Sequence record: ON528719
Origin: Shigella phage ESh6
Length of the DNA: 39,381 nucleotides
Direction: 5' to 3' (one strand)
Shown here: positions 1 to 39,381 of the stretch, piece by piece
Layout of the letters: every line of letters starts with the position of its first letter
Numbering within the stretch: position 1 is the first letter of the stretch
Translations under genes and position numbers: made by a program
Notes under the pieces: generated by a model
Databases searched by the model: none
Told to the model about the DNA's origin: nothing
What the model saw: only the letters and a program-made list of their open reading frames with translations

Positions 1-1047
1 GCCGGAGAAGTTACTAAAGCTGCTGCTGAGGTTTCCAAGGCTGCTGCACATGTGACTACAGCTAATGGACACGCTGACCGGGCCTACACTGAGGCAAACC
101 GCTCACGCGACGAAGCCGACCGCGCGAAACGTGAGGCAGACAAGCTGGGAAATTTCAATGGATTGGCTGGTGCACTTGATAAGGTAGATGGAACCAATGT
201 GCGCTGGAAAGGAGATATTCACACTAACGGGCGCCTTTACCTTACCTCGAATGGTTTCGACTGTGGTCAGTATCAACAGTTCTTTGGTAACGTTCCTAAC
301 CGTTATTCCGTAATGGAATGGGGTGACAAAGATGGGTGGCATCTCTATTCTGAGCGACAAACTGAGGGTGGTACTCCTACGTTGAACCTTAGAGGCCACA
401 TGACAGCAAATGGTAATGTGCGTGCTGCTGGTAACTCCTACGCAAATAACCTATTTGAGATTGACCGAGAGCAAAATTGGCCCGGTCGTGGCGCATTTGC
501 TAACCAGTATGCGGACAGGGCTGCTCCATTTACCAAGACTGGTCGCTTTCAGGCACCAAACGGTTACAGTGAGTATTACCCAATCGTTAAGGCGTTCGTT
601 GAAACACAAGGTCACGGGTATGGTACTGTTGCTACCTTTGGTATGCTGACCTCTGGCGGCGGTAGGTTTGCTAACGGGTGTGTCCATGTTATTGGGGACA
701 ATGGTACTAATGGTCTCTGGCAGTTCGACCCGAACACTGGTGGTTTCCTATCGCGTGGCGACGTACATGTTGGTGATGGTGGTATCGTCTACCAGAACGG
801 TGACATCTATGGCACTGTTTGGGGAGGCCGTCCACTGTCATCATGGCTTCGTGACCAGACCGTAAACCGCATTGCTATGAGTGACGTGAACCATGCACGG
901 CTATGGAACGCTTACGGTGTCAACGATGGCGGTGGTAAGGTAATCACAGGAATCCTCAACGGTAATGCGGACGCATTGATTGATGAGTGCCAATGGCGAG
1001 TAATGCAATACGTCCGTAATGATGGGCAACGTTTCAATATTTACTGA
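1..1047 (+). CDS. 17: Tail fibre protein gp17, 3' portion (5' portion is at the window end; permuted genome)
   Basis: Frame 1 is open from nt 1 to the stop at 1047 (ORF track 52..1047 is the same frame). ...ADRAKREADKLGNFNGLAGALDKVDGTNVRWKG...GFDCGQYQQFF matches the T7 gp17 mid-region from memory; distal ~230 aa diverge. Confidence 0.85.
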   Translation, partial: AGEVTKAAAEVSKAAAHVTTANGHADRAYTEANRSRDEADRAKREADKLGNFNGLAGALDKVDGTNVRWKGDIHTNGRLYLTSNGFDCGQYQQFFGNVPNRYSVMEWGDKDGWHLYSERQTEGGTPTLNLRGHMTANGNVRAAGNSYANNLFEIDREQNWPGRGAFANQYADRAAPFTKTGRFQAPNGYSEYYPIVKAFVETQGHGYGTVATFGMLTSGGGRFANGCVHVIGDNGTNGLWQFDPNTGGFLSRGDVHVGDGGIVYQNGDIYGTVWGGRPLSSWLRDQTVNRIAMSDVNHARLWNAYGVNDGGGKVITGILNGNADALIDECQWRVMQYVRNDGQRFNIY

Positions 1048-2664: not shown

Positions 2665-4425
2665 GTGTCTACTCAATCCAATCGTAATGCGCTCGTTGTG
2701 GCGCAACTGAAAGGTGACTTCGTGGCGTTCCTGTTCGTCTTATGGAAGGCGTTAAACCTTCCTGTACCTACTAAGTGCCAGATAGATATGGCTAAGGTAC
2801 TGGCGAACGGGGACAACAAGAAGTTCATCCTACAGGCTTTCCGTGGTATCGGTAAGTCGTTCATCACTTGTGCGTTCGTTGTGTGGTCCTTATGGCGGGA
2901 CCCTCAGTTGAAGATACTTATCGTATCAGCTTCTAAAGAACGTGCAGACGCTAACTCCATATTCATCAAGAACATCATTGACCTGCTACCGTTTCTCAGT
3001 GAGTTGAAGCCGAGACCCGGACAGCGTGACTCTGTGATTAGCTTTGATGTTGGTCCTGCTAGTCCTGACCACTCTCCTAGTGTGAAATCAGTAGGTATCA
3101 CTGGTCAGTTAACTGGTAGTCGTGCTGATATTATCATCGCGGATGACGTTGAGATTCCGTCTAACAGTGCGACTATGGGTGCCCGTGAGAAACTATGGAC
3201 TCTAGTTCAGGAGTTCGCTGCGCTTCTTAAACCTCTGCCTACATCTCGTGTTATCTACCTTGGTACTCCTCAGACTGAGATGACTCTGTATAAGGAGCTT
3301 GAGGATAACCGTGGGTATACGACTATTATCTGGCCTGCTCTGTACCCAAGGACTCGTGAGGAGAACCTCTACTACTCTCAACGTCTGGCACCAATGCTCC
3401 GTGCGGAGTACGAGGAGAATCCTGAGGCACTGGCTGGGACTCCTACAGACCCTGTTCGATTCGACCGAGACGACCTACGTGAGCGTGAGTTGGAATACGG
3501 TAAGGCTGGCTTTACGTTACAGTTCATGCTTAACCCGAACCTGAGTGATGCCGAGAAGTACCCTCTGAGGCTCCGTGACGCTATCATAGCGGCCTTAGAC
3601 TTAGAGAAGGCACCAATGCATTACCAATGGCTTCCGAACCGTCAGAACATCATTGAGGACCTTCCTAACGTTGGCCTTAAGGGTGATGACCTGTATACAT
3701 ACCACGACTGCTCCAACAACTCTGGTCAGTACCAACAGAAGATTCTGGTCATTGACCCTAGTGGTCGCGGTAAGGATGAAACAGGTTACGCTGTACTGTA
3801 CACCCTCAACGGTTACATCTACCTAATGGAAGCTGGAGGTTTCCGTGATGGTTACTCCGATAAGACCCTTGAGCTACTCGCTAAGAAGGCCAAGCAATGG
3901 GGAGTCCAGACGGTTGTCTACGAGAGTAACTTCGGTGACGGTATGTTTGGTAAGGTGTTCAGTCCTATCCTTCTTAAACACCACAACTGCGCTATGGAAG
4001 AGATTCGTGCTCGTGGTATGAAGGAGATGCGTATTTGTGATACCCTTGAGCCAGTCATGCAGACTCACCGCCTTGTCATTCGAGATGAGGTCATTCGGGC
4101 AGACTACCAGTCCGCTCGTGACGTAGACGGTAAGCATGACGTTAAGTACTCACTGTTCTACCAGATGACCCGTATCACCCGTGAGAAAGGTGCTCTGGCT
4201 CATGATGACCGATTGGATGCTCTTGCGCTAGGCGTTGAGTATCTCCGTGAGTCCATGAAATTGGATTCCGTTAAGGTAGAGGGTGAGGTACTTTCAGACT
4301 TCCTTGAGGAACACATGATGCGACCTACAGTGTCTGCTGCCCACATCATTGAGATGTCTGTAGGAGGAGTTGATGTGTACTCTGAGGACGATGAGGGATA
4401 CGGTACGTCTTTCATTGAGTGGTGA
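2665..4425 (+). CDS. 19: Terminase large subunit / DNA maturation protein B (gp19)
   Basis: 586-aa ORF, same length as T7 gp19 and near-identical from memory; GTG start at 2665 after 'aaggagg'; Walker A-like GIGKS. Confidence 0.95.
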
Positions 4426-4957: not shown

Positions 4958-4980
4958 TAATTCGACTCACTATAGGGAGA
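4958..4980 (+). promoter_or_regulatory. T7 RNAP promoter phiOR (right-origin promoter)
   Basis: 'taattcgactcactatagggaga' matches the 23-bp T7 consensus except T at -13; lies between gene 19 and 19.5. Confidence 0.8.
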
Positions 4981-5216: not shown

Positions 5217-5289
5217 GGTCTTCCTGACCGACTGACGGCTCACCGAGGGATTCAGCGGTATGATTGCATCACACCACTTCATCCCTATA

Positions 5290-5790
5290 GAGTCAAGTCC
5301 TAAGGTATACCCATAAAGAGCCTCTAATGGTCTATCCTAAGGTCTATACCTAAAGATAGGCCATCCCATCGGTGATGCCTAAAGAGTTGCTTAGAGAGGG
5401 CCTAAGGAGTCCCTAGAGGGTCCTTTAAAATATACCATAAAAATCTGAGTGACTATCTCACAGTGTAAGCGCCCAAAGTTCCCCCCATAGGGGTCCCTAA
5501 AGTCACTCCTTTGGAGTGCCGGACCTTGAGGTGGCCTTGAGGTGGGGCCTGAGGTGGACCGAAGAGGGTCCTAATGTTACCGTTGGGAGTGTCTCCTTGT
5601 CCCTATCTGTTCAACCTCCTAAAGTCACCTCCTAAAGTTCACCATCAAGACAACACCAAAAGAATAACCTTAAAGACTCACCAAGTCAATCCCTATCTTA
5701 AAGTTTTCCCAAAGACCAGACCCAAAGACCAGACCCAAAGCTGCCCCGTTGTTACCTATAAAGAGATGACCAATAATCATTGTCTTTAAT
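5290..5790 (+). repeat. Short dispersed 'cctaaag / ccaaagaccaga' repeats typical of T7-type genome-end regions
   Basis: Multiple copies of ccTAAAG-like heptamers (e.g. 'cctcctaaagtcacctcctaaagttcacc') and tandem 'cccaaagaccagacccaaagaccagacccaaag'. Confidence 0.6.
5456..5615 (+). repeat. Direct terminal repeat, single collapsed copy; predicted physical genome left end at ~5456
   Basis: 'tctcacagtgta...gttccccccatagggg' matches the first bases of the T7 left end (recalled); the 240 bp between 19.5 and this point equals T7 spacing. Right boundary approximate. Confidence 0.5.
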
Positions 5791-26951: not shown

Positions 26952-27983
26952 ATGACTACTATGACTGGTGGACAGCAACTGGGTACTAACCAGGGTAAAG
27001 GTGCAAGTGCTTCTGATAAACTGGCGTTGTTCTTGAAGGTATTTGGTGGTGAAGTTCTGACTGCATTCGCTCGCACCTCTGTGACCACTTCTCGCCACAT
27101 GGTCCGTTCCATCTCCAGCGGTAAATCCGCTCAGTTCCCTGTACTGGGTCGCACTCAGGCAGCTTACTTGTCTCCGGGTGAGAACCTCGATGATATTCGT
27201 AAAGACATCAAACACACCGAGAAGACCATCACCATTGATGGCCTCCTGACGGCAGACGTTCTGATTTACGACATTGAGGACGCGATGAACCACTATGACG
27301 TTCGCTCTGAGTATACCTCTCAGTTGGGTGAATCTCTGGCTATGGCTGCTGATGGTGCGGTTCTGGCTGAGATTGCTGGCCTGTGTAACTTGGCGAGCGC
27401 CTCTAATGAGAACATCGATGGCTTAGGTACTGCTACCGTAATTGAGACCACTCAGGACAAGGCAGCACTTACCGACCAAGTTGCGCTTGGTAAGGAGATT
27501 ATTGCGGCTCTGACTAAGGCTCGTGCGGCTCTGACTAAGAACTATGTTCCGGCTGCTGACCGTGTGTTCTACTGCGACCCAGATAGCTACTCTGCGATTC
27601 TGGCAGCACTTATGCCGAACGCAGCAAACTACGCTGCTCTGATTGACCCTGAGAAGGGTTCTATCCGCAACGTTATGGGCTTTGAGGTTGTAGAAGTTCC
27701 CCACCTCACCGCTGGTGGCGCTGGCACCTCTCGTGCGGATGCTACCGGTCAGAAGCACGCCTTCCCTGCCACTAAGAGTGGTAACGACAAGGTTGCTAAG
27801 GACAACGTTATCGGCCTGTTCATGCACCGCTCTGCTGTAGGTACTGTTAAACTGCGCGACTTGGCTCTGGAGCGCGCTCGCCGTGCTAACTTCCAAGCAG
27901 ACCAGATTATTGCTAAGTATGCAATGGGCCACGGTGGTCTGCGCCCAGAAGCTGCTGGTGCAGTGGTTTTCAAGGGGAAGTAA
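26952..27983 (+). CDS. 10A: Major capsid protein 10A
   Basis: 343-aa ORF; MTTMTGGQQLGTNQGKG... close to T7 gp10A. Confidence 0.97.
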   Translation: MTTMTGGQQLGTNQGKGASASDKLALFLKVFGGEVLTAFARTSVTTSRHMVRSISSGKSAQFPVLGRTQAAYLSPGENLDDIRKDIKHTEKTITIDGLLTADVLIYDIEDAMNHYDVRSEYTSQLGESLAMAADGAVLAEIAGLCNLASASNENIDGLGTATVIETTQDKAALTDQVALGKEIIAALTKARAALTKNYVPAADRVFYCDPDSYSAILAALMPNAANYAALIDPEKGSIRNVMGFEVVEVPHLTAGGAGTSRADATGQKHAFPATKSGNDKVAKDNVIGLFMHRSAVGTVKLRDLALERARRANFQADQIIAKYAMGHGGLRPEAAGAVVFKGK

Positions 27984-34576: not shown

Positions 34577-37500
34577 ATGGATAAGTACGATAAGAACGTA
34601 CCAAGTGATTATGATGGTCTGTTCCAAAAGGCGGCTGATGCCAACGGGGTCTCTTACGACCTTTTACGTAAAGTCGCTTGGACAGAATCACGATTTGTGC
34701 CTACAGCAAAATCTAAGACTGGACCATTAGGCGTGATGCAGTTCACCAAGGCAACCGCTAAGGCCCTTGGTCTGCGAGTTACCGATGGTCCAGATGATGA
34801 CCGACTGAACCCTGAGTTGGCTATCAATGCTGCTGCCAAGCACCTTGCTGAACTGGTGAGTAAATTTGATGGGGACGAACTTAAAGCTGCCCTTGCGTAC
34901 AACCAAGGCGAGGGACGCTTGGGTAATCCACAACTTGAGGCGTACTCCAAGGGAGACTTTGCGTCCATCTCTGAGGAAGGACGTAATTACCTGCGTAACC
35001 TTCTGGATGTCGCTAAGTCACCGATGGCTGGACAATTGGAAACCTTTGGAGGTATCACCCCAAAGGGTAAAGGCATTCCGGCTGAGGTAGGATTGGCTGG
35101 AATCGGTCATAGTCAGAAAGTAACACAGGAACTTCCTGAGTCCACAAGTTTTGACGTTAAGGGTATCGAACAGGAGGCTCCGGCGAAACCATTCGCCAAG
35201 GACTTTTGGGAGACCCACGGAGAAACGCTTGACGAATACAACAGTCGTTCAACCTTCTTCGGATTCAAAAATGCTGCCGAAGCTGAACTCTCCAACTCAG
35301 TAGCTGGGATGGCCTTCCGTGCTGGTCGTCTCGATAATGGTTTTGATGTGTTTAAAGACACCATTACGCCGACTCGCTGGAACTCTCACATCTGGACTCC
35401 AGAAGAGTTAGAGAAGATTCGAACCGATGTTAAGAACCCTGCGTACATCAACGTGGTAACTGGCGGTTCCCCTGAGAATCTTGACGACCTCATTAAGCTG
35501 GCTAACGAGAACTTTGAGAATGACTCACTTGCTGCCGAAGCTGGACTTGGTGCCAAACTGAGTGCTGGTATTATCGGTGCTGGTGTGGACCCACTCAGCT
35601 ATGCTCCTATGGTCGGTGTTACTGGTAAGGGCTTTAAGTTAATCAATAAGGCCCTTGTAGTTGGTGCCGAAAGTGCTGCGCTGAACGTTGCATCCGAAGG
35701 TCTCCGCACCTCCGTAGCTGGTGGTGACTCTGACTATGCTGGTGCGGCTTTAGGTGGCTTTGTGTTTGGTGCTGGTATGTCAGCAATCAGTGACGCTATT
35801 GCTGCTGGACTGAAACGTAGTAAACCAGAAGCTGAGTTCGACAATGAGTTCATTGGTCCTATGATGCGAATGGAAGCCCGTGAGACGGCACGCAACGCCA
35901 ACTCTACGGACCTCTCTCGAATGAATACTGAGAACATGAAGTTTGCAGGTGAACATAATGGTGTTCCTTATGAGGACTTACCGACCGAGAAAGGTGCCGT
36001 GGTGTTACACGATGGCTCCGTTCTAAGTGCAAGTAACCCAATCAACCCTAAGACTCTCAAAGAGTTCTCAGAGGTTGACCCTGAGAAGGCTGCGCGAGGA
36101 ATCAAACTGGCTGGGTTCACCGAGATTGGTTTGAAGACCTTAGGGTCTGACGATGCTGACATCCGTAGAGTGGCTATCGACCTCGTTCGCTCTCCTACTG
36201 GTATGCAGTCTGGTGCCTCCGGTAAGTTCGGTGCAACAGCTTCTGATATCCATGAGAGACTTCATGGTACCGACCAGCGTACTTATAATGACTTGTATAA
36301 AGCAATGTCTGACGCTATGAAAGACCCTGAGTTCTCTACTGGTGGGGCTAAGATGTCTCGTGAAGAGACTCGTTACACTATCTATCGCAGAGCAGTATTA
36401 GCTATCGAACGCCCAGAACTACAGAAGGTGCTCACTCCGTCTGAGAGAATCGTTATGGACATCATTAAGCGTCACTTTGACACCAAGCGTGAACTTATGG
36501 AGAACCCAGCAATCTTCGGTAATACGAAGGCTGTTAGTATCTTCCCTGAGAGTCGTCACAAAGGGACTTACGTTCCTCACGTATACGACCGACACGCTAA
36601 GGCGCTGATGATTCAACGCTATGGTGCCGAAGGCTTACAGGAAGGGATTGCTCGTTCGTGGATGAACAGCTACGTCTCCAGACCCGAGGTCAAGGCGAGA
36701 GTCGATGATATGCTTAAGGAAGTACATGGGGTGAAGGAAGTAACGCCAGAGATGGTAGAGAAGTACGCTATGGATAAGGCTTACGGTATCTCCCACTCAG
36801 ACCAGTTCACCAACAGTTCCATAATCGAAGAGAACATTGAGGGCTTAGTAGGTATTGAGAACAACTCATTCCTTGAGGCACGTAACTTGTTTGATTCGGA
36901 CCTATCAATCACTATGCCAGACGGACAGCAATTCTCAGTGAACGACCTAAGGGACTTCGATATGTTCCGCATCATGCCAGCGTATGACCGCCGTATCAAT
37001 GGTGACATCGCCATCATGGGGTCTACTGGTAAAACCACTAAGGAACTTAAGGATGAGATTCTGGCTCTCAAAGCTAAAGCTGAGGGCGACGGTAAGAAGA
37101 CTGGCGAGGTTCATGCTCTTATGGATACCGTTAAGATTCTTACTGGTCGTGCTCGACGTAATAACGACACTGTGTGGGAAACATCGATGCGAGCCATCAA
37201 TGACCTAGGGTTCTTCGCTAAGAACGCCTACATGGGTGCTCAGAACATTACTGAGATTGCTGGGATGTTTGCCACAGGTAACGTGCGTGCTCTCGGTCAC
37301 GGTATCCCAATTCTGCGTGATACACTATACAAGTCTAAACCAGTTTCCGCTAAGGAACTCAAGGAACTCCATGCGTCTCTGTTCGGGAAGGAGGTGGACC
37401 AGTTGATTCGACCTAAACGTGCTGACATTGTGCAGCGCCTAAGGGAAGCAACTGATACCGGACCTGCTGTGGCGAACATCGTAGGGACCTTGAAGTATTC

Positions 37501-38533
37501 CACACAGGAACTGGCTGCTCGCTCTCCATGGACTAAGATGCTGAACGGGACAACTAACTACCTTCTGGATGCTGCGCGTCAAGGGATGCTTGGAGATGTT
37601 ATTAGTGCCACCCTAACAGGTAAGACTACCCGCTGGGAGAAAGAAGGATTCCTTCGTGGTGCCTCAGTAACTCCTGAGCAGATGGCTGGCATCAAGTCTC
37701 TCATCAAGGAACATATGGTACGTGGTGAGGACGGGAAGTTTACCGTCAAGGACAAGCAAGCGTTCTCTATGGACCCTCGCGCTATGGACTTATGGCGACT
37801 TGCTGACAAGGTAGCTGATGAGGCAATGTTGCGTCCGCATAAGGTGTCCTTACAGGATTCCCATGCGTTCGGAGCATTGGGTAAGATGGTTATGCAGTTT
37901 AAGTCTTTCACTATCAAGTCCCTTAACTCTAAGTTCGTTAGAACCTTCTACGATGGTTATAAGAACAACCGAGCGATTGACGCTGCGCTGAGCATCATCA
38001 CCTCTATGGGTCTCGCTGGTGGTTTCTACGCTATGTCTGTACACGTCAAAGCGTATGGGATGCCTAAGGAGAAACGTAAGGAGTACTTGGAGCGCGCACT
38101 GGACCCAACCATGATTGCCCACGCTGCGTTATCTCGTAGTTCTCACTTGGGTGCTCCTTTTGCTATTGCTGACCTAGTTGGCGGTGTTTTAGGGTTCGAG
38201 TCCTCCAAGATGGTTCGCTCCACGATTCTACCTAAGGACACAGTGAAGGAGCGCGACCCTAATAAGCCTTATACCTCGTGGGAGGTAATGGGTAATATGG
38301 GTTCCAACATTCTTGAACAGATGCCATCGGCTGGATTTGTGGCTAACGTTGGGGCTTCCCTGCTTAATACTGCTGGCGTTGTGAATGCTCCAAACAAAGC
38401 TACTGAGCAGGACTTCATGACTGGTCTCATGAACTCCACAAAAGAGTTAGTACCGAACGATCCATTGACGCAACAGCTTGTGTTGAAGATTTATGAGGCG
38501 AATGGTGTTAACTTGAGGGAGCGTCGGAAATAA
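34577..38533 (+). CDS. 16: Internal virion (core) protein D with N-terminal lytic transglycosylase domain, gp16
   Basis: 1318-aa ORF, same length as T7 gp16; N-terminal SLT-like motif ...VAWTESRFVPTAKSKTGPLGVMQFTKATAKALG.... Confidence 0.95.
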   Translation: MDKYDKNVPSDYDGLFQKAADANGVSYDLLRKVAWTESRFVPTAKSKTGPLGVMQFTKATAKALGLRVTDGPDDDRLNPELAINAAAKHLAELVSKFDGDELKAALAYNQGEGRLGNPQLEAYSKGDFASISEEGRNYLRNLLDVAKSPMAGQLETFGGITPKGKGIPAEVGLAGIGHSQKVTQELPESTSFDVKGIEQEAPAKPFAKDFWETHGETLDEYNSRSTFFGFKNAAEAELSNSVAGMAFRAGRLDNGFDVFKDTITPTRWNSHIWTPEELEKIRTDVKNPAYINVVTGGSPENLDDLIKLANENFENDSLAAEAGLGAKLSAGIIGAGVDPLSYAPMVGVTGKGFKLINKALVVGAESAALNVASEGLRTSVAGGDSDYAGAALGGFVFGAGMSAISDAIAAGLKRSKPEAEFDNEFIGPMMRMEARETARNANSTDLSRMNTENMKFAGEHNGVPYEDLPTEKGAVVLHDGSVLSASNPINPKTLKEFSEVDPEKAARGIKLAGFTEIGLKTLGSDDADIRRVAIDLVRSPTGMQSGASGKFGATASDIHERLHGTDQRTYNDLYKAMSDAMKDPEFSTGGAKMSREETRYTIYRRAVLAIERPELQKVLTPSERIVMDIIKRHFDTKRELMENPAIFGNTKAVSIFPESRHKGTYVPHVYDRHAKALMIQRYGAEGLQEGIARSWMNSYVSRPEVKARVDDMLKEVHGVKEVTPEMVEKYAMDKAYGISHSDQFTNSSIIEENIEGLVGIENNSFLEARNLFDSDLSITMPDGQQFSVNDLRDFDMFRIMPAYDRRINGDIAIMGSTGKTTKELKDEILALKAKAEGDGKKTGEVHALMDTVKILTGRARRNNDTVWETSMRAINDLGFFAKNAYMGAQNITEIAGMFATGNVRALGHGIPILRDTLYKSKPVSAKELKELHASLFGKEVDQLIRPKRADIVQRLREATDTGPAVANIVGTLKYSTQELAARSPWTKMLNGTTNYLLDAARQGMLGDVISATLTGKTTRWEKEGFLRGASVTPEQMAGIKSLIKEHMVRGEDGKFTVKDKQAFSMDPRAMDLWRLADKVADEAMLRPHKVSLQDSHAFGALGKMVMQFKSFTIKSLNSKFVRTFYDGYKNNRAIDAALSIITSMGLAGGFYAMSVHVKAYGMPKEKRKEYLERALDPTMIAHAALSRSSHLGAPFAIADLVGGVLGFESSKMVRSTILPKDTVKERDPNKPYTSWEVMGNMGSNILEQMPSAGFVANVGASLLNTAGVVNAPNKATEQDFMTGLMNSTKELVPNDPLTQQLVLKIYEANGVNLRERRK

Positions 38534-38553
38534 TACGACTCACTATAGGGAGA
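38531..38553 (+). promoter_or_regulatory. T7 RNAP class III promoter phi17
   Basis: 'taatacgactcactatagggaga': perfect consensus; overlaps the gene 16 stop. Confidence 0.9.
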
Positions 38554-38604: not shown

Positions 38605-39381
38605 ATGGCTAACGTAATTAAAACCGTTTTGACTTACCAGTTAGATGGCTCCAATCGTGATTTTAATATCCCGTTTGAGTATCTAGCCCGTAAGTTCGTA
38701 GTGGTAACTCTTATTGGGGTAGACCGTAAGGTCCTTACTATCAATACAGACTACCGTTTTGCTACGCGTACTACCATCTCACTGACTAAGGCTTGGGGTC
38801 CGGCAGATGGCTACACTACCATCGAGTTACGTCGAGTAACCTCCACGACAGACCGATTGGTTGACTTTACGGACGGCTCAATCCTCCGTGCGCATGACCT
38901 TAACGTTGCTCAGATTCAAACGATGCACGTAGCGGAAGAGGCCCGTGACCTAACTGCCGATACTATCGGTGTTAATAACGATGGTCATTTGGATGCTCGT
39001 GGTCGTAAGATTGTTAACTTGGCGTATGCCACAAGTGACTATGATGCCGTTCCTTTAAAGCAGGTTAAAGAGCGTGAATACTCTGCATGGAATGCTGTAA
39101 CAAAATCTAACGAACACGCTGACAGGTCCAATAATGAAGCAAACCGTTCTCGTGATGAGGCCAACCGTGCTCAACGTGAAGCTGACCGTTCGACCCAACA
39201 GGCAGGTGTCTCTACGGCACAGGCAGTTGAGTCCAAAACGCAAGCTGACCGTTCCAACTCTGAGGCCAACCGTGCTAAAGGTTATGCTGATAGTATGACC
39301 ACAAGTGTCGCTGAGGCCAAGAAGCAAGCTGACCGTTCCAACTCTGAGGCAAATCGTTCCCGTGATGAGGCCAACCGTGCT
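38605..39381 (+). CDS. 17: Tail fibre protein gp17, 5' portion (continues past the window end into 1..1047)
   Basis: ATG 38605 after 'aaggagg'; MANVIKTVLTYQLDGSNRDFNIPFEYLARKFVVVTLIGVDRKVLTIN... near-identical to the T7 gp17 N-terminal domain, then heptad-rich repeats. No stop before the window end. Confidence 0.92.
   Translation, partial: MANVIKTVLTYQLDGSNRDFNIPFEYLARKFVVVTLIGVDRKVLTINTDYRFATRTTISLTKAWGPADGYTTIELRRVTSTTDRLVDFTDGSILRAHDLNVAQIQTMHVAEEARDLTADTIGVNNDGHLDARGRKIVNLAYATSDYDAVPLKQVKEREYSAWNAVTKSNEHADRSNNEANRSRDEANRAQREADRSTQQAGVSTAQAVESKTQADRSNSEANRAKGYADSMTTSVAEAKKQADRSNSEANRSRDEANRA

Follow-up and report, generated by a model that had tools for sequence, protein, structure and literature searches.

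The closest described counterpart of the fiber analyzed here is gp17 of phage T7 (NP_042005; N-terminal domain in PDB 7boz and 7ey9), which is laid out as an anchor, a heptad-periodic shaft, the motif ADKL(G/E)N, a hinge and a tip, and whose gene follows gene 16 behind the phi17 promoter. The proximal half of the T7 fiber is a triple-helical coiled coil according to AFM, SAXS and modeling (bioRxiv 10.1101/2025.10.22.683886), and a triple coiled coil is also attributed to Steven et al. (1988, J Mol Biol 200:351) as that work is cited in PMC11990801. A Mu-like Tfa complex is predicted for phage EmilieLinder (PMC11990801). Further points of comparison are the gp17 proteins with a long shaft, found in the Berlinvirus phages 285P, S523 and CarlSpitteler and in the Teseptimavirus phages EG1, IME390, SYGE1 and EmilieLinder, and the fibers of Shigella phage ESh2 and Kluyvera phage Kvp1. 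Modular mosaicism of T7-group fibers is already familiar. Here we examine gene 17 of Shigella phage ESh6, which is split between the two ends of a 39,381-bp stretch of DNA (hereafter, the window).

Genome Layout and Identity of Gene 17

At least 11 near-consensus T7 RNA polymerase promoters, five of them exact, are found in the window, and the 12 kb from the RNA polymerase gene to the DNA polymerase gene are 92–93% identical to Teseptimavirus phages, among them HZ2R8, EG1 and vB_Yep_9. The gene order is that of T7 with a different starting point: the end of gene 17 comes first, followed by the lysis and packaging genes, the genome-end region, and then the early genes and onward to the start of gene 17. 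Taken together, the promoters, the identity to Teseptimavirus and the rotated T7 gene order argue that the window holds a complete T7-like genome, represented in circular form with an arbitrary starting point. The ESh6 window would thus be a genome with a Teseptimavirus backbone, drawn as a circle and opened inside the tail fiber gene, and joining its end to its start restores a single intact gp17 of 607 aa. We consider it very probable that this explanation holds as a whole, i.e., that the genome is complete and in circular form, that its origin falls inside the gp17 shaft, that the repeats found there are old and conserved, and that the direct join is correct.

The assignment of the interrupted gene to gene 17, made in a first-pass annotation of the window, was confirmed by searches against protein domains and solved structures. 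Residues 1–155 match the Pfam family Phage_T7_tail (PF03906, E=5.3e-67, 224.8 bits against a cut-off of 25.2), and the best match among solved structures is T7 gp17 itself (PDB 7boz, E=1.4e-138). A T7-type gene 17 (Autographiviridae, Studiervirinae) is further recognized by its neighbors: gene 16 (internal virion protein D) and a promoter for the phage polymerase precede it, and the holin and terminase genes follow. In the window, a 1,318-aa ORF (34577–38533) lies upstream of the gene, the promoter at 38531–38553 precedes it, and relatives have the same order. The start codon is the ATG at 38605, not 38606. The final codon of the window (gct, ending at 39381) and its first codon (gcc, at base 1) are in phase when the sequence is circularized, as the first-pass annotation had stated, and the joined reading frame continues without interruption for 607 aa to a stop codon that ends at 1047 (Table 1). 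On the minus strand, a 90-aa ORF (39055–39327) was weighed as a possible overlapping gene, but it lies entirely within the gp17 frame, which has strong support, and the sequence there is biased and repetitive.

These results are of use mainly in quality control, where they indicate that the genome is complete and that gene 17 is one gene of 607 aa across the origin. Without a cross-origin annotation, gene 17 would be called either as two truncated fragments or as an artefactual 331-aa ORF with a GTG start (52–1047). What the first-pass annotation noticed is an unremarkable, conserved feature of a known protein together with an artefact of the assembly origin.

Table 1. Features of ESh6 gene 17 and of related sites in the window, with the closest matches of the gp17 modules (window positions in nucleotides unless given as gp17 residues).
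Feature	Position	Strand	Remarks
T7 RNA polymerase consensus promoter (phi17 position)	38531..38553	+	Exact match to TAATACGACTCACTATAGGGAGA; placed as T7 phi17
Gene 17, 5' part, codons 1–259	38605..39381	+	ATG at 38605; 777 nt with 259 full codons; cut off by the window end
Gene 17, 3' part, codons 260–607 and stop	1..1047	+	Shaft end, hinge and receptor-binding tip; in-phase continuation
Heptad-periodic shaft before the junction, aa 164–259	39094..39381	+	Unbroken heptads [EQH][AV][DN][RK][AS]xx; helix prediction
Heptad-periodic shaft after the junction, aa 260–317	1..174	+	Ends at conserved ADKLGN; register kept; gapless to nine relatives
21-nt exact repeat, copy 1 (RDEANRA)	39151..39171	+	CGTGATGAGGCCAACCGTGCT
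21-nt exact repeat, copy 2	39361..39381	+	CGTGATGAGGCCAACCGTGCT; ends with the window
27-nt exact repeat, copy 1 ((T)QADRSNSEA)	39240..39266	+	Includes the 26-nt CAAGCTGACCGTTCCAACTCTGAGGC at 39241–39266
27-nt exact repeat, copy 2 ((K)QADRSNSEA)	39324..39350	+	Includes the 26-nt CAAGCTGACCGTTCCAACTCTGAGGC at 39325–39350
Peptide-level unit HADRAYTEANRSRDEADRA, aa 283–301	70..126	+	Same motif family, no nucleotide repeat; 75% nt identity to other units
Tail fiber assembly (chaperone) gene, 175 aa	1060..1587	+	Caudo_TAP PF02413, E=2.4e-10, 41.1 bits against a cut-off of 22.1; directly downstream of gene 17
Single homologue of the T7-type terminal repeat (putative collapsed concatemer junction)	5456..5604	+	T7 alignment; inferred site of the virion DNA ends
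gp17 anchor	aa 1–149		Best match T7 type (EmilieLinder, IME390, T7), 95–97% identity
gp17 shaft	aa 150–310		Best match long class (285P, S523, CarlSpitteler), 90.7%, 0 gaps
gp17 hinge	aa 311–375		T7 / Kvp1, 80% / 77%
gp17 tip	aa 376–607		ESh2 / Kvp1, 88.8% / 80.6%, 0 gaps

The Heptad Shaft and Its Intragenic Repeats

When residues 164–317 of gp17 are arranged in sevens, they form about 21 uninterrupted heptads of the pattern [E/Q/H]-[A/V]-[D/N]-[R/K]-[A/S]-x-x that cross the junction. Ala or Val occupies position 2 in 20/22 heptads and Ala or Ser occupies position 5 in 19/22, and the junction falls inside the heptad at residues 255–261 (EANRA-AG, the hyphen marking the junction here and below) with the register undisturbed. 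AlphaFold2, run on residues 145–259 alone, predicted a single continuous helix over gp17 residues 151–258 (mean pLDDT 92.9). The first-pass annotation had described the segment as a coiled coil of heptads and had located the contig origin within it. The periodicity and the predicted helix bear out a heptad-periodic helical shaft, and the origin does lie inside it. The repeat-rich segment is accordingly read as the proximal shaft of the fiber, in which the two core positions are taken up by small residues (Ala/Val and Ala/Ser) and the remaining ones by charged or polar residues. As in T7, the shaft is probably a rod formed by a trimeric alpha-helical coiled coil, which would link the N-terminal, tail-binding domain to the hinge and tip. 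The Ala and Ser residues at the core are unusually small and polar compared with a canonical coiled coil, which counts against the coiled-coil reading.

Two pairs of exact repeats had been reported from this segment. The 21-nt pair was recovered at the same positions (39151–39171 and 39361–39381) with a maximal length of 21 nt. The second pair, given as 26 nt long (39241–39266 and 39325–39350), is likewise an exact match, but the length needed correction, as its maximal extent is 27 nt with starts at 39240 and 39324. An all-against-all scan of the circularized genome turned up no longer exact direct repeats except the promoters, and for both repeats there were 0 matches in any of 100 dinucleotide-preserving shuffles. 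The repeat offsets (21, 84, and 210 nt) are all multiples of 21 nt and hence whole heptads, and the extended repeats make up a family of five 57-nt copies spaced by 21, 84, 21, and 84 nt. No nucleotide repeat spanning the junction was found, the 21-mer aside.

At the peptide level, the reiterated heptads of the first description were found as HADRSNNEANRSRDEANRA, QADRSNSEANRA and QADRSNSEANRSRDEANRA. The start of the window encodes the same motif family, as had also been proposed, in the form of HADRAYTEANRSRDEADRAKREAD (gp17 residues 283–306, nt 70–141); the motif originally singled out there (…EANRSRDEADRAKREAD) corresponds to residues 290–306.

Continuity of Gene 17 Across the Window Ends

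The first-pass annotation cautioned that the repeat count of gene 17 might be collapsed or mis-joined at the window ends. We compared the join with other phages by means of a 678-nt query in which the window end was joined to the window start (junction between query positions 318 and 319), and 88 phage records matched. The best matches are single BLAST pieces that extend from query position 1 to about 470–510, across the junction; for S523, the nucleotide alignment across the junction covers 483 nt with 0 gaps. The gp17 proteins of S523, PhiV-1, 285P, CarlSpitteler, and YpP_T3 are gapless against the joined protein over approximately residues 100–320 (5/5), and 4/5 contain the exact sequence RDEANRA-AGEVTKAAAEV. 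With EG1, IME390, SYGE1, and EmilieLinder added, nine independent phages are gap-free through the shaft. All nine read ...RA-A(G/D)EVTKAAAEV at the junction, and in a base-level alignment …CGTGCT-GC(C/T)GGAGAAGT… is contiguous in 9/9 of them. These relatives represent two genera, come from different laboratories, and were recorded with different start points.

If the repeat had been collapsed or mis-joined, the true gene would have more or fewer heptad blocks, for example because a loop of 210 nt is in fact traversed twice. The contig does end precisely on a repeated 21-mer, a kind of site that graph assemblers cannot resolve unambiguously. However, all nine independent phages have the same length and order through the region and show no indel at or near the junction. 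The anchors DAVP and ADKLGN lie 158 aa apart in the window, as they do in each of the seven long-class relatives in which both were found by pattern, whereas gain or loss of the 210-nt block between the 21-mers would change this distance to 228 or 88 aa, lengths that occur in none of the relatives. Moreover, each of the four sequences that flank the two 21-mer copies occurs a single time in the window, so that, with the internal path fixed, no join other than the direct one closes a single circle. A collapse is not supported by these comparisons, from which nothing appears to be missing or duplicated at the join, and we regard a different true block count as exceedingly improbable.

Exact searches for the same sequence elsewhere were negative. 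Neither the joined 607-aa protein nor either half of it had an exact match in a collection of 15 billion proteins. In exact scans, a 54-mer and a 29-mer over the junction were absent from viral contigs, the 29-mer was absent from metagenome contigs, and a unique 36-mer from the tip was absent from viral contigs, so the ESh6 contig itself is not part of the viral collection. A second assembly of this same phage was thus not found in the protein collection or among the viral and metagenome contigs.

Age of the Repeats

The contig origin had also been described as sitting in a repeat expansion. The sequence comparisons speak against this description: TRF (minimum score 30) detected no tandem array in the joined gene, and counterpart units are closer across phages than the units within a genome. 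The 57-nt units of the window are 0.91–0.96 identical to their counterparts in S523, PhiV-1, and CarlSpitteler, and one of the two 285P units reaches 0.91. Overall, counterparts are 0.91–0.96 identical between phages in 4/5 of the relatives tested, compared with 0.72–0.84 between units of one genome. The units are therefore older than the divergence of these phages. S523, PhiV-1, 285P, and CarlSpitteler each contain an exact repeat of 22–34 nt with the 84-nt offset seen in the window, and CarlSpitteler carries the identical 21-nt repeat pair (21/21). Among close relatives, no copy-number variation was found (the 158-aa length is the same in seven, and nine are gapless).

Codon choice within the units was compared with expectations from the codon usage of the genome. 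The units U1 and U3 share 12/17 codons where 7.0 would be expected for the same peptide, and V1 and V2 share 9/11 where 4.5 would be expected. The unit at the window start (nt 70–126) shares 5/14 codons with other units against an expectation of 5.5, which is chance level. Codon identity above expectation argues that units descend from a common ancestor through internal duplication rather than by convergence on a peptide motif; occasional conversion between units possibly occurred as well.

We propose that the 21- and 27-nt repeats are leftovers of old internal duplications of heptad blocks, the register of which would be held by structural constraint, and that they are common, with the same count and length, to a whole class of Teseptimavirus and Berlinvirus fibers. 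Alternatively, the array could have expanded recently or be actively homogenized by gene conversion or slippage, in which case shaft length would vary in the population. The codon identity of the U1/U3 and V1/V2 pairs would fit such an origin, as would one paralogous pair in 285P that is closer (0.94) than its counterpart in the window (0.89), and across lineages there are two shaft-length classes that lie exactly 6 heptads apart. Nevertheless, the between-phage identity exceeds the within-genome identity in 4/5 relatives, TRF detects no tandem repeat, and the units are scattered at distances of 84 and 210 nt and separated by unique sequence. In addition, length is identical in every long-class phage in which both anchors were found, and the length classes are only two and very different in sequence (28–43% identity), and so do not form a graded series. 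We consider a recent or ongoing expansion very unlikely and retain old, conserved duplications as the preferred reading.

Virion Ends and the Position of the Contig Break

In the first-pass annotation, the true genome ends were expected at a terminal repeat near 5456 and not at the window break, and homology to the T7 ends supports this placement. Inspection of the sequence and an alignment with T7 revealed one homologue of the T7 terminal repeat. Positions 5230–5455 align to the unique sequence of T7 just inside its right terminal repeat, 5456 aligns to T7 base 1, and from there the window matches T7 bases 1–12 exactly (TCTCACAGTGTA…) and then follows the pattern of the repeat. The homologous block ends with …TGTCCCT at 5604, past which the left-end unique sequence of T7 begins, with a phiOL-like promoter at 5787 and then an A1-like promoter. 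T7 unique sequences are thus found on both flanks of the block, as in T7, but the block is approximately 149 bp long compared with 160 bp in T7, and its interior has diverged. The 23-mer of the left end of T7 itself has no match in the window, even when three mismatches are tolerated.

The window contains one copy of the terminal repeat because the assembly was circularized. Judging from the T7 alignment, the virion DNA would be approximately 39.5 kb long with ends at 5456 and 5604, the probable limits of a terminal repeat of approximately 149 bp. A better form of the record would be rotated to start at ~5456 and have the terminal repeat restored, so as to represent the virion DNA of ~39.5 kb.

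The last base of the window is also the last base of the maximal 21-nt repeat. One base further on, the copies no longer agree, as copy 1 is followed by c and copy 2 by g, the first base of the window. Right edges of repeated 21-mers occupy 12 of the 39,381 positions (a fraction of 3e-4), and a window end at one of them points to an assembler that broke the circular path there. From this positional coincidence we infer that the break most probably lies at the assembler's 21-mer branching node of the circular path or arose in a step that trimmed a circular overlap. In a de Bruijn-style assembler with 21-mer nodes, a circular path would start and end at a branching node, and the terminal overlap of 21 nt would then be trimmed.

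It could also be that the break has nothing to do with the repeat and reflects coincidence or a deliberate rotation by the depositor. Arbitrary rotation is common in circular assemblies, and modern assemblers usually end with k much greater than 21, at which a 21-nt repeat gives no branch. Yet a break exactly at the last base of the maximal 21-nt repeat would be a coincidence with one of very few positions, and anyone rotating the record on purpose would usually choose a gene boundary or the terminal repeat as its start rather than codon 260 of gene 17. We consider an unrelated break unlikely and favor one made by the assembler at the repeat.

Modular Composition of the Fiber

The gp17 of ESh6 is a new mosaic of known modules, in which a T7-type anchor, a long shaft, and a tip of the ESh2/Kvp1 type are combined, with a chaperone gene downstream (Table 1). 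Only the particular combination of modules is new, given the mosaicism already familiar in T7-group fibers. The best full-length match in the phage collection, that of ESh2, is only 71.5% identical, followed by Kvp1 at 64.9%.

Compared with T7 gp17, the ESh6 protein is encoded at the same gene position and has the same layout, including a hinge that is 80% identical; its N-terminal tail-binding domain is 95.3% identical (aa 1–149), and the T7 shaft is heptad-periodic as well. On the other hand, the ESh6 shaft is 42 aa (6 heptads) longer and belongs to the EANRSRD-type class, whereas that of T7 is of the NEA-x-x-FR type, and no significant match to the T7 shaft was obtained. The tip (aa 376–607) is not T7-like, with 46% identity over only 35 aa, and its identity to T7 or T3 is negligible.

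The shaft is instead shared with the long-shaft gp17 proteins of Berlinvirus (285P, S523, CarlSpitteler) and Teseptimavirus (EG1, IME390, SYGE1, EmilieLinder), which are 84–91% identical over residues 150–310 with 0 gaps and have in common with ESh6 the junction context, the heptad count, and the 22–34-nt exact repeats at an 84-nt offset. These relatives diverge from ESh6 directly after ADKLGN and so have other hinges and tips, and the N-terminal domains of the Berlinvirus proteins are only 73–75% identical to that of ESh6. The ESh2 fiber, in contrast, has the same tip on a short, T7-type shaft with 116 aa between the anchors, and the Kvp1 fiber has a third, unrelated shaft sequence (29% identical, 33 gaps). 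No close relative of the tip was found at the nucleotide level.

The short class of shafts (T7, T3, and ESh2) and the long class are exactly 42 aa, or 6 heptads, apart. Units U3 and U4 of ESh6 are also separated by 42 aa, and a deletion between them was considered as a source of the difference from T7, but the divergence of the two classes is too great for an alignment to place the indel.

Overall, the ESh6 fiber is another case of module shuffling in T7-group tail fibers, which bears on host-range prediction. We also entertain, as a rather doubtful idea, that the in-register nucleotide repeats and the conserved borders (DAVP...ADKLGN) might serve as recombination points, at which shaft modules would be swapped and length would change in quanta of whole heptads. 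The 6-heptad difference between the classes and the presence of the same tip on the short shaft of ESh2 fit such an exchange of shaft modules. If this were true, shaft length, and with it the reach of the fiber, would be a selectable and exchangeable trait separate from receptor specificity.

The chaperone gene that follows gene 17 in ESh6 is a further difference from T7, the record of which annotates no such gene between gene 17 and the holin gene. A separate tfa gene directly behind the fiber gene is a trait of chaperone-dependent fiber tips of the Mu/P2/lambda type. Kvp1 resembles ESh6 in this respect, as a tail fiber assembly gene (gene 17.2) lies downstream of its gene 17, and an arrangement of fiber gene and downstream assembly gene is annotated in SPLA4 and EmilieLinder as well as in Kvp1. 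Within gp17 itself, residues 260–607 had no Pfam match; residues 547–599 of the tip gave a weak match in the PDB to the Mu tail fiber protein S (8ju3, E=1e-4).

Mosaic structure of the tail fiber

Segment-wise identity comparison indicates that the 607-aa tail fiber gp17, whose gene is split by the contig origin (38605-39381 joined to 1-1047), is a mosaic of four segments. The anchor (aa 1-149) is T7-type (95-97% identity), the shaft (aa 150-310) belongs to a long class and shares 90.7% identity with those of phages 285P, S523 and CarlSpitteler, the hinge (aa 311-375) is T7/Kvp1-type (77-80%) and the tip (aa 376-607) is ESh2/Kvp1-type (81-89%). At the nucleotide level, the S523 match ends at approximately nt 153 of the window, and a match to 13a and T3 spans approximately 151-326.

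Comparison of gp17 aa 147-310 with T7, T3 and ESh2 showed that shaft length in T7-group fibers falls into discrete classes. The distance between the conserved DAVP and ADKLGN anchors that bound this heptad-periodic helical segment is 158 aa in eight phages, whereas it is 116 aa in T7, T3 and ESh2, shorter by exactly six heptads. Kvp1 and SPLA4 carry a shaft of a third type.

Immediately 3' of gene 17 lies a gene of the tail-fiber assembly chaperone family (Table). A tail-fiber assembly gene likewise follows gene 17 in Kvp1 (gene 17.2), SPLA4 and EmilieLinder; none is among the annotations of the T7 record at this position.

Gene calls at the origin and the genome-end region

Two ORFs near the origin were called in a mechanical ORF list (Table). 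The GTG-start ORF is simply gene 17's 3' portion in truncated form, and the minus-strand ORF within the shaft repeats is probably spurious. An automatic annotation run on the record in its present form would miscall gene 17. With the terminal-repeat homologue placed by alignment, the conventional start of the record would be 5456.

We also observed, in the non-coding left-end region, a tandem repeat of the 13-nt unit CCCAAAGACCAGA (5708-5740), whose units generate two identical 20-nt stretches, one at 5708 and the other at 5721. By alignment, it matches the AAAGACCAGACC repeats of the T7 left end.

Table. Features located in the window.
Feature	Position	Strand	Evidence
GTG-start ORF, 331 aa	52-1047	+	Mechanical ORF list
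Tail-fiber assembly chaperone-family ORF, 175 aa	1060-1587	+	Pfam Caudo_TAP, E=2.4e-10
ORF, 147 aa	4463-4906	+	Domains HNH_3, HTH_23, homing-endonuclease zinc-loop
T7-type terminal-repeat homologue, one collapsed copy	5456-5604		Alignment with T7
ORF within shaft repeats, 90 aa	39055-39327	-	Mechanical ORF list

A probable homing endonuclease and a capsid-position repeat

The 147-aa ORF is flanked on one side by the terminase large subunit gene (2665-4425) and on the other by a phiOR-like promoter (position 4958). Its counterpart in HZP2, HZ2R8 and CICC 80001 is annotated as an HNH endonuclease, and the ORF probably represents a homing endonuclease insertion.

Elsewhere, the 16-nt sequence TGCGGCTCTGACTAAG is present as two exact direct copies in 27503-27539 (the first at 27503, the second at 27524, an offset of 21 nt), within a 343-aa ORF (26952-27983) that occupies the major capsid gene position.
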